Source: Candidatus Dormiibacterota bacterium (GTDB lineage Bacteria > Chloroflexota > Dormibacteria > CF-121). From it: a stretch of 57,466 nucleotides of DNA. The translations under genes were made by a program, and so were the position numbers. The notes under the pieces are model-generated. The model was not told where the DNA came from, searched no databases, and worked only from the letters and a program-made list of their open reading frames with translations. The stretch is from positions 1 to 57,466 of the forward strand of contig DASTJZ010000075.1 in the NCBI GenBank assembly GCA_035716185.1, written 5' to 3'. Below, piece after piece: positions 36,938-39,005 of the stretch (position 1 is its first letter; each line of letters opens with the position of its first letter).

Positions 36938-37780
36938 ATGCCACTCGTTACGCTCAAGCAACTTCTCGAGGCCGGTGTCCATTTCGGCCACCAGACCAGC
37001 CGGTGGAATCCCAAGATGAAGCGGTACATCTTCACCGCGCGAAACGGGATCCACATCATCGACCTGCAACAAACCGTCAGGCTGCTGGATGACGCCGCCG
37101 GTTGGGTCAAGGACGTCGTCGGCGGAGGCCGCATGGTGCTCTTCGTCGGCACCAAGAAGCAGGCCCAGGAATCGATCGAGCTGGAGGCCCGGCGCTCCGG
37201 CATGCCGTTCGTCAACCATCGCTGGATGGGCGGGATGCTCACGAACTTCACAGTCATGCGGCGCCAGATCGAGCGATTGAACAGTCTGCGCGCCATCCGC
37301 AACAACGGCGGGTTCACGGGCAGCAAGAAGGCCATCACCGAGCTGGAGGAGGAGTACCAGCGACTGGAGCGCTTCTTCGGCGGCATGGCCGAGATGAAAC
37401 GCCTCCCTGGTGCGGTCTACATCGTCGACCCACGCAAGGAGCACATCGCCGTCACCGAGGCCCGCAAGCTCAGTATCCCGATCGTCGCCATCACGGATTC
37501 CAACTGTGATCCCGACGAGATCGACCACGTGATTCCCGGAAACGACGATGCCATCCGAGCGGTGAAGCTGATCACCTCGAAGATTGCCGATGCCGCCCTC
37601 GAGGCGCGCCAGCTGATCAGCCCCGAGGAGCTGGCGGCTGCGCCCGAGGTTCCGGTGCCTGCCGAGTTCGAGTACGGCGCAGAGGAAGAGGAAGAAGAGG
37701 ACGAAAAGCGATTCGCCGGGATGCCCACCGTCGATGAGGCCGAGTTCTACGAGGACGAAGCCCTGGACGACGAGAAATGA
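36938..37780 (+). CDS. rpsB: 30S ribosomal protein S2
   Basis: [28 protein letters not shown]; acidic tail. Confidence 0.98.
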
Positions 37781-38403
37781 CGGCGGCCACGATCAGCGCG
37801 CAGCAGGTCAAGGCGCTGCGCGATGCGACCGGGACCGGCATGATGGACTCGAAGCGGGCGCTCGAGGCGACGGAAGGGGACGTCGAAAAGGCGAAAGACT
37901 GGCTGCGACAGAAGGGGATTGCCCGAGCCGGGGTGAAAGCCGCCCGGCTGGCGGCCGAGGGCCTGGTGGAGATCTACCTCCACCACAACCACCATCTCGG
38001 CGTGCTGGTCGAGCTCAACAGCGAGACTGACTTTGTCGCCAGGAGTGACGCCTTCCGCGAGCTGGCGCACGAGTTGGCGGTCCACATCGCGGCGGCCGAC
38101 CCGCGTTACCTTCGCGTCGAGGACATTCCCTCCGCGGTGCTGGAGCGCAAACGCGAGGAAATCCGGGCCGAGGCGATCCGCCAGAAGAAACCGGCCGCGG
38201 TGATCGAGAAAATCATCGATGGCAAGCTGGGCGCGTTTTACGAGCGAGAGGTGCTGGCCGATCAGCGCTGGGCCAAGGACGACACGCGTACCGTGCAACA
38301 GGTTCTCGCGGACGCGGTCGCGCGCTTCGGTGAAAACCTGACGGTGTCGCGCTTCGCCCGCTTCAAGGTCAAGGACAACGGCGAAACGGAGGAGCAGCAA
38401 TAG
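37777..38403 (+). CDS. tsf: Elongation factor Ts, short form, copy 1
   Basis: [41 protein letters not shown]; 208 aa. Confidence 0.93.
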
Positions 38404-38405
38404 CC

Positions 38406-39005
38406 ATGGCCATCTCAGCCGATCAGGTCAAAGCCCTTCGCGATGCCACCGGGGCAGGAATGATGGACTCGAAGCGGGCTCTCGAGGCGACCAACGGTGA
38501 CCTCGAGAAGGCCAAGGACTGGTTGCGACAAAAAGGCATTGCCAAGGCCGGCGCTAAGGCAGCCCGCGTTGCGCGGGAAGGCATCATCGCCACCTATGTG
38601 CACCACAATCACCAGCTTGGGGTGCTGGTCGAGCTCAATAGTGAGAGCGACTTCGTGGCGCGCAACGAAGAGTTCCGCCACCTGGCGCATGAAATCGCGG
38701 TGCACATCGCGGCCGCGGAGCCACGCTACCTGCGCCGGGAAGACGTGCCCAACGAGGTCCTGGACCGCGAGAAGGCGATCTTCGAAGCGCAGGCCAGCGA
38801 CCAGAAGAAGCCGCCTCAGGTGGTCGAGAAGATCGTGCAGGGCAAGCTCAACGACTTCTACAAACGAGAGGTCCTGCTTGATCAGGCCTGGGCCAAAGAC
38901 GACAAGCGCACGGTGGACCAGCTCCTGAAAGAAGGCATCGCCAAGCTGGGCGAGAACATAACCATTTCTCGCTTCGCCCGTTTCAAGGTCGGAGAAGCCA
39001 GCTAG
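38406..39005 (+). CDS. tsf: Elongation factor Ts, short form, copy 2
   Basis: Same architecture, [12 protein letters not shown]; 199 aa. Confidence 0.95.

Follow-up and report, generated by a model that had tools for sequence, protein, structure and literature searches.

An old tandem of two unequally evolving short elongation factor Ts genes in a Dormibacterota genome

The window analyzed here, a stretch of 57,466 nucleotides from a Candidatus Dormiibacterota bacterium (GenBank assembly GCA_035716185.1, contig DASTJZ010000075.1, forward strand), carried two complete genes for the short form of elongation factor Ts (EF-Ts), the nucleotide-exchange factor of EF-Tu, side by side in the rpsB-tsf-pyrH-frr cluster, the typical position of EF-Ts. 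The first gene, tsf1 (208 aa, positions 37777..38403, + strand), was the fast-evolving and dispensable copy, and the second, tsf2 (199 aa, positions 38406..39005, + strand), was the slow, ancestral-like copy that behaved as a housekeeping EF-Ts. Analysis of relatives revealed that both genes were intact and under selection at asymmetric rates, that their tandem order was conserved, that tsf1 was lost repeatedly, and that the residues expected to contact EF-Tu were kept in both products. The explanation that best fits these observations as a whole, which we hold with moderate confidence, is that Tsf1 is an accessory EF-Ts subunit that is co-translated with Tsf2, co-assembles with it and modulates nucleotide exchange. 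The exchange activity, the mixed dimers and the modulatory role are what we infer from the observations described below.

Two intact short EF-Ts genes with coupled reading frames

Both products were assigned to the EF-Ts family with scores above the curated cutoffs (TIGR00116 “tsf”, cutoff 104 bits: 180.5 bits for tsf1 and 208 bits for tsf2; PF00889, cutoff 27 bits: 113 and 132 bits, respectively). Each aligned without gaps to chain C of the Thermus thermophilus structure 1AIP over 190-191 residues with 45-47% identity (E = 4e-60 for tsf2 and 4e-52 for tsf1), in agreement with their previous classification, from the sequence alone, as Thermus-type short EF-Ts. Both probably have EF-Tu exchange activity. 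The comparison of Tsf1 with Tsf2 by BLASTP gave 137 identical residues out of 193 (71%) without gaps (E = 1e-96), and a recount gave 82.1% for the N-terminal 84 aligned residues and 62.4% for the C-terminal 109, matching the values of about 71%, 82% and 62% in the sequence-only reading of this DNA. The N-terminal motif GxGMMDxKxAL, which binds the G domain of EF-Tu, was present in both copies and was 90% identical between them. An N-terminal three-helix (UBA-like) domain was predicted with helices at residues 8-18, 22-31 and 36-45, and the Pfam EF-Ts_N and UBA scores were under the gathering cutoff.

The AlphaFold2 model of Tsf1, a monomer of moderate quality (predicted local distance difference test score 70, predicted template modelling score 0.41), contained the three helices of the N-domain, strands β1 (62-68) and β2 (74-82), the turn with the xDFV motif, helices 91-106, 119-135, 140-161 and 173-184, and strand β3 (188-197), followed by a disordered acidic tail at the C terminus. 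The top Foldseek matches of this model were 1AIP_C/H and 1TFE. The acidic tail and a 3-residue N-terminal extension distinguished Tsf1 from Tsf2. The Asp and Phe of the (T/S)DFV motif were kept in at least 97% of both paralog clades. The position of Thermus Cys190, which forms the inter-subunit disulfide, was occupied by Ala in Tsf1 and Tsf2 as well as in at least 88% of each clade; this disulfide is a Thermus peculiarity and probably not essential to the short class.

The open reading frames bore out the earlier description of two full-length and tightly coupled tsf genes. The stop codon (TGA) of rpsB, the first gene of the operon (positions 36938..37780, + strand; ribosomal protein S2, with PF00318 called on orthologs in related loci), overlapped the tsf1 start in the sequence ATGA (37777..37780, + strand), a sign of translational coupling, and the tsf1 stop was separated from the tsf2 start by a 2-nt gap. 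The string GGAGGAG at 38388..38394 (+ strand), located in the stretch that encodes the acidic tail of Tsf1 and 11 nt before the tsf2 ATG, is probably the ribosome-binding site of tsf2, as read from the sequence. GGAGGAG or GAGGAG strings were also found in the tsf1 tails of four relatives (L137, L001, L128 and L136), 11-13 nt 5' of the tsf2 start. Selection on the ribosome-binding site may shape the acidic tail of Tsf1 as much as any role of the protein.

The tandem is conserved in one clade, and tsf1 was lost from it at least twice

Protein searches recovered a tsf2-type family of 199 aa with 88-100% identity to the window Tsf2 and a more diverse tsf1-type family of 205-210 aa with 64-96% identity; in a profile search, the tsf1-type proteins formed about 41 clusters at 90% identity. 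Every tsf1-type gene with a readable contig, from about 11 distinct lineages, was found in the order rpsB-tsf1-tsf2-pyrH-frr-uppS-cdsA. The tandem contigs were those of the window, L001, L128, L129-131, L132-134, L135, L136, L137, L138, L139 and L140, and a 71-kb JGI contig. In all, the tandem was present on more than 15 contigs of independent origin (JGI, ENA and NCBI), and it is real because the assemblies stem from different projects and assemblers. An assembly artefact as the source of the tandem was ruled out by the same contigs.

The statement that tsf is normally single copy also held. None of the 93 other short-EF-Ts loci had an adjacent second tsf, and among 42 genome loci only that of L001, a close relative of the window, had one; L001 was the one GTDB representative with the tandem in the genome scan. 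The matches listed from a metagenome scan with the tsf1 profile (80 loci, reused below as ortholog background) were all distant single-copy EF-Ts with at most 54% identity. The tandem is limited to a single clade, of about family rank, of soil bacteria that have not been cultured and are probably Dormibacterota, and the closest single-copy sequences beyond this clade carried mostly Dormibacterota labels.

Coupling of the genes was kept in every lineage. The rpsB-tsf1 junction was an ATGA overlap, with a 2-nt gap in L139, and the tsf1-tsf2 junction was either a gap of 1-2 nt or an overlap of 14-26 nt. The overlaps were found in L132-L134, L135, L138 and the 71-kb JGI contig (P0122), where tsf2 had no start codon at the canonical position and was called from an upstream ATG within the 3' end of tsf1. 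These upstream-started forms of Tsf2 had 209-215 aa with a Pro-rich N-terminal extension.

A tsf2-type gene alone, in identical synteny, was found in L123 (GCA_035936995.1), L124-127 (including GCA_005881255.1) and L141-143 (GCA_035639535.1). In the tree of the flanking genes (rpsB+pyrH+frr), L123 grouped with the tandem-bearing L128 and L139 with 95% support, and L141 was the sister of the group of the window, L137 and L001 with 100% support, inside the tandem-bearing clade. Since both single-copy lineages were nested in the tandem clade, tsf1 was lost at least twice. The tsf gene of L141 (2162-3603; also in L142 and L143) overlapped rpsB by ATGA, and its first ~10 nt (ATGACGCTGG) matched the tsf1 of L001, while the remainder was tsf2-type, giving a 200-aa hybrid with 95% identity to the window Tsf2. 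This hybrid is the scar left when exactly one repeat unit was deleted between the tandem copies. The tsf1 tree largely followed the flanking-gene tree, and vertical inheritance with loss is therefore favored over lateral spread.

These losses bear directly on the heterodimer that the sequence-only reading had suggested. In its obligate form, subfunctionalization would have left only the Tsf1-Tsf2 dimer competent, a pairing comparable to that of subdomains N and C in the long form. Tight coupling in every lineage, changes in β1 of both copies after the duplication, and the two separate alignments of long EF-Ts to the short protein, which show that this route has been taken before, are in its favor, as is one tsf1 without the Asp-Phe wedge (L140, described below). 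The tsf2-type gene alone in at least three lineages, two of them nested inside the tandem clade, contradicted it, and since Tsf2 therefore works alone, an obligate heterodimer is unlikely. The Tsf2 of the single-copy lineages was 92-95% identical to the window Tsf2, the tsf2 rate showed no change between tandem and single-copy genomes, and both paralogs kept the N-domain, the DFV residues and the equivalents of the domain-III contacts. We consider the obligate heterodimer highly improbable.

The duplication is old, and the two copies evolve under unequal constraint

In bootstrapped neighbor-joining trees, the tsf1 clade and the tsf2 clade were each monophyletic (89% and 97% bootstrap, respectively), and the two clades together with L002, a single-copy metagenome-assembled genome (MAG), formed a 99% group. 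Bootstrap support was split, 47% against 53%, over whether L002 branched before or after the duplication. The synonymous divergence (dS) between tsf1 and tsf2 was about 1 or more, and the tandem duplication is old.

Nucleotide identity between tsf1 and tsf2 within a genome was 0.725 in the N-terminal part and 0.663 in the C-terminal part, and the corresponding values between genomes were 0.731 and 0.668. Gene conversion was rejected as the reason why the copies are so similar in their N-terminal part, because the within-genome identity equaled the between-genome identity and synonymous sites were saturated. The two genes therefore did not undergo concerted evolution, and their N-terminal likeness reflects selection at the protein level.

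The rpsB-tsf1 junction was collinear with that between rpsB and tsf in single-copy relatives: TAGccATG had become TGAcgGCG, and the start had shifted by 9 nt in the upstream direction, so that it lay on the rpsB stop. The tsf1-tsf2 junction TAGccATGGCC reproduced the rpsB-tsf junction of the single-copy relatives. This shared TAGccATGGCC is the one piece of support for a duplication that spanned the rpsB-tsf junction. An origin of the Tsf1 acidic tail from a duplicated RpsB tail was considered and dropped, as the local alignment of the tail to the 3' end of rpsB was not significant, its rank among 3828 windows varying between lineages from 2nd to about 2000th. The tsf1-type gene of L139 (3001-3618; P0125) had the ancestral 2-nt gap after rpsB and lacked the N-terminal extension, its 3' third was nearer to tsf2 than to other tsf1 genes (EGIAKLGEN; L rather than F), and its position in the tsf1 tree disagreed with the flanking-gene tree; either a partial gene conversion long ago or the retention of ancestral states could explain the likeness to tsf2.

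The ratio of nonsynonymous to synonymous divergence (dN/dS, omega) was calculated by NG86, as YN00 failed on most pairs through saturation. In the only clearly unsaturated pair, that of the window and L137 (dS ~0.2), omega was 0.087 for tsf1 and 0.048 for tsf2, with 0.049 for rpsB, 0.019 for pyrH and 0.029 for frr. Neutral evolution of one copy, an outcome that would speak against the heterodimer or specialization of the sequence-only reading, was thus seen for neither gene. Deeper pairs (dS near 1) gave a dN of 0.19-0.23 and an omega of 0.10-0.24 for tsf1 and a dN of 0.04-0.08 and an omega of 0.03-0.10 for tsf2. Selection constrained tsf1 about 2-4 times less strongly than tsf2, and the amino-acid change of tsf1 was 2-4 times greater. 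The path length from the duplication node was 0.293 for tsf1 and 0.129 for tsf2, and 19 sites were conserved in at least 95% of tsf2 but in less than 60% of tsf1, with 1 site in the reverse direction. The tsf1-specific states were mostly derived, and tsf2 mostly retained the outgroup state.

A redundant duplicate drifting toward loss without a distinct function would also evolve faster, by the 2-4 times observed, would be lost at least twice, and could show a damaged DF motif in one copy, as in L140. It would not be expected to hold omega at 0.09-0.24, well below 1, or to preserve 68 invariant columns among 24 tsf1-type sequences, and the reading frame was intact in all of the about 41 tsf1-type clusters although dS was saturated across the clade. 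We see hardly any chance that drift alone accounts for tsf1, which is a constrained, functional gene under weaker but persistent purifying selection.

Divergence is concentrated in β1, beside the xDFV motif and on two helices

To locate the differences between the paralogs, each structural element was compared with 356 ortholog pairs of equal overall identity. Strand β1, at residues 62-68 of Tsf1 (GLVEIYL; 37960..37980, + strand, from DSSP of the predicted model) and residues 59-65 of Tsf2 (GIIATYV; 38580..38600, + strand, from alignment to tsf1 and 1AIP), was 29% identical between Tsf1 and Tsf2 and 72% (+/- 15%) identical in the ortholog pairs. The 8 residues around xDFV were 75% identical between the paralogs and 100% in the orthologs, and the values for helices 119-135 and 173-184, which held the bulk of the C-terminal divergence, were 29% against 54% and 33% against 64%, respectively. 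The N-terminal domain (90% against 71%) and β2 (100% against 87%) deviated in the opposite direction, and β3 was 80-85% identical between the paralogs. The two proteins were thus unusually different in β1, in the flank of xDFV and in the two helices, and unusually similar in the N-domain and β2.

The sequence-only reading had placed the divergence in the dimerization half. The C-terminal excess was real and larger than usual, as only 1.7% of ortholog pairs at the same overall identity had an N-minus-C identity gap of at least 0.20; the assignment to the dimerization half as a whole was too coarse, because β2 and β3 were kept and only β1 of the sheet diverged. The highest density of paralog-specific residues was found in β1, where 4 of the 7 positions were conserved within the clades and differed between them (V64/I61, E65/A62, I66/T63 and L68/V65), two of these being type-II sites (V64/I61 and I66/T63). 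The changes in β1 after the duplication occurred on both branches, with 2 derived in tsf2 and 1 in tsf1.

The dimer interface in the Thermus structure 1TFE, described by Jiang and colleagues in 1996, is reportedly a sandwich of two three-stranded antiparallel sheets (β1, β2 and β3), and monomerized mutants are said to be inactive. The pattern in β1 raises the possibility of insulated isoforms, in which the β1 changes would block cross-dimerization and two homodimers with differing kinetics or condition optima would act on the same EF-Tu. Insulation fits with β1 being the most diverged element, with its residues being conserved in each clade, as expected under selection against paralog interference, and with the absence of gene conversion. 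Against it, the other two strands of the same sheet were nearly or fully unchanged, and adjacent co-translated cistrons favor co-assembly and leave no means for separate regulation; a sequence scan found no promoter or terminator between the genes. The evidence fits insulated homodimers and mixed dimers alike, and we judge the insulated homodimers unlikely.

The motif TDFV of Tsf1 (T84, D85, F86 and V87; 38026..38037, + strand) differed from SDFV of Tsf2 (S81, D82, F83 and V84; 38646..38657, + strand), as had been noticed before. The first residue was T in 88% of the tsf1-type proteins and S in 91% of the tsf2-type and 90% of the outgroup proteins. S is the ancestral state in the phylum and the T of tsf1 is derived; this T was not fixed, as some tsf1 proteins still carried S. 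Most of the EF-Tu contact residues were conserved in both clades: the equivalents of Mycobacterium tuberculosis R13 (R15 in Tsf1 and R12 in Tsf2) and H149 (H69 in Tsf1 and H66 in Tsf2), and the equivalents of the Escherichia coli domain-III contacts K166, M170, A174 and V234. The sole difference among the contact residues checked in Tsf1 was at the equivalent of M. tuberculosis N82, located after DFV, which was an invariant N in Tsf2 and S/T in Tsf1.

This difference could indicate that Tsf1 serves another GTPase, for example an additional, divergent EF-Tu or a factor resembling EF-Tu from another part of the genome. N82 of M. tuberculosis EF-Ts is essential for the formation of the EF-Tu/EF-Ts complex (PMC9529903), and paralog-specific changes flanked the DFV wedge, where orthologs of equal identity did not differ at all. 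However, T was also found at the N82 equivalent of outgroup EF-Ts, so S/T fits with ordinary EF-Tu, all of the remaining contact residues were unchanged, and no tuf or tuf-like gene was present in the 57-kb window. A different GTPase as the partner of Tsf1 is quite improbable.

Both copies kept both halves of the EF-Tu interface, and complementary loss of motifs was thus absent, with one exception, the tsf1-type gene of L140 (27-650; P0033). This gene, in the usual tandem, lacked the Asp-Phe wedge, as it encoded ETNVVAR instead of ETDFVAR. Its remaining sequence looked constrained (omega 0.11-0.16), and a sequencing error is possible in this single short contig.

Proposed role of Tsf1 as an accessory subunit

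Both subunits of the EF-Ts dimer take part in each of the EF-Tu sites of the Thermus complex (PMC9529903). As the short class is active solely in dimeric form and every EF-Tu makes contact with the two subunits, co-assembly of Tsf1 with Tsf2 is the most likely mode of action of Tsf1. The dimer as the only working form of the class, co-translation, and two of the three interface strands without change make mixed dimers physically plausible, and we regard mixed Tsf1-Tsf2 dimers as the likeliest state.

According to this model, an old tandem duplication of a short, dimeric Thermus-type tsf would have given a single rpsB-tsf1-tsf2 message, from which coupled translation would yield two nucleotide-exchange subunits for EF-Tu. 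Tsf2, with its ancestral sequence, would be the housekeeping factor, sufficient alone as in the relatives. Tsf1 would be the accessory paralog that keeps the N-domain, the Asp-Phe wedge and the counterparts of the domain-III contacts and is altered in β1 of the dimer sheet, beside DFV and on two surface helices. It may co-assemble with Tsf2, and possibly with itself, into dimers with somewhat altered binding or release of EF-Tu. In this way Tsf1 would modulate EF-Ts function and replace nothing, and lineages could discard tsf1.

Several points weigh against the accessory-subunit model. Expression, exchange activity and dimer type were all deduced from the genes, and the 4 of 7 β1 differences could equally mean insulation into separate homodimers. 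The interface residues of Tsf1 and Tsf2 were assigned from the secondary structure of a monomer model of moderate quality and from the interface reported for 1TFE rather than from coordinates, and are putative. The loss of tsf1 was judged at the locus, and a copy elsewhere in those MAGs is possible. As dS was saturated for most pairs, the omega values are mostly rough, with 2-3 close pairs being informative. Finally, the nearest MAGs carry public labels that disagree with one another (Dormibacteraeota, Chloroflexi, “Actinomycetes”, Acidoferrum and Angelobacter); the conflict concerns L001, L002, P0006, P0058 and P0075, which are nearly identical loci, and some of the MAG labels must be wrong.

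Comparison with known systems

The EF-Ts of T. thermophilus (1AIP and 1TFE) resembled both copies in its length of ~200 aa, in the gap-free alignment, in being the top structural match and in the predicted order of secondary structure, with a three-helix N-domain, β1-β2, xDFV, helices and β3. It differed in being encoded by one gene and in forming a symmetric homodimer tethered by the Cys190 disulfide, in contrast to the two diverged genes, the Ala at the Cys190 position and the acidic C-terminal tail of tsf1 found here.

Duplicated translation-factor genes are familiar from tuf, with tufA/tufB in enterobacteria and tuf1/tuf3 in Streptomyces, where one copy is divergent and accessory. Unlike the tsf pair, these genes encode the GTPase and not the exchange factor, and the enterobacterial copies are homogenized by gene conversion.

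The long monomeric EF-Ts (E. coli 1EFU and M. tuberculosis 7VMX) belongs to the same family and shares the rpsB-tsf operon context, and each of its two core subdomains aligned to the short protein. Its halves are fused and have degenerated in a complementary manner, with only subdomain N keeping TDFV and the N-terminal domain, whereas the genes described here were separate and each had the full motif set. Since long EF-Ts mimics the short-form dimer through an internal repeat (PMC9529903), a pair of short tsf genes is similar to the state from which the long form is presumed to have come. Tsf1-Tsf2 might be an asymmetric heterodimeric exchange factor, a living intermediate toward the pseudo-symmetric long EF-Ts, in which Tsf1 drifts to a “subdomain-C-like” partner. 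Such drift is hinted at because the L140 copy lacks the Asp-Phe wedge, and we regard this possibility as doubtful. If it were true, the dimer would have two EF-Tu sites with different kinetics.

Full-text literature searches for duplicated or paralogous bacterial tsf or EF-Ts returned nothing relevant, and public annotations named both genes simply “elongation factor Ts”. The proteins themselves were ordinary family members, and the novelty lies in a dimeric exchange factor whose two genes are co-translated, conserved as a pair and diverging asymmetrically. The pair is a natural experiment on the fate of a homodimer after gene duplication, by mixing, insulation or asymmetry, and bears on the possible origin of the internally duplicated long EF-Ts. 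The clade supplies built-in controls in the form of close relatives without tsf1, one of which arose by a reconstructable deletion. If Tsf1 alters EF-Tu recycling, it would represent a previously unrecognized control point of elongation in soil bacteria that grow slowly. As these organisms are not in culture, heterologous expression would be required.

Gene neighborhood of the tandem

Downstream of tsf2, pyrH and frr of the same cluster were located at 39019..40310 (+ strand; PF00696 and PF01765 called on orthologs). The window had a GC content of 65% and contained recG, smc, ftsY, ffh, rnhB, topA, rpsB, tsf1, tsf2, pyrH, frr, uppS, cdsA, dxr, rseP, ispG, proS, relA/spoT, hisS and aspS; it is ordinary core chromosome, and the tsf pair is outside any mobile element. 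A regulatory scan gave zero Rfam hits, and the leader upstream of rpsB had no significant structure (z = -0.23).

Two open reading frames with high GC at third codon positions (GC3), at 33576-34208 (- strand; 209-210 aa) and 55786-56613 (+ strand; 275 aa), had no Pfam match at E <= 1e-5. The ~960 nt at 49000-49961, between relA/spoT and a GGDEF sensor gene, contained no open reading frame with coding-like GC3 in a crude gene call and no Rfam hit. The prolyl-tRNA synthetase at 45332-46786 had a C-terminal ProRS-C_1 domain, which marks the archaeal/eukaryote-like form of the enzyme; the form common in bacteria has an editing insertion.

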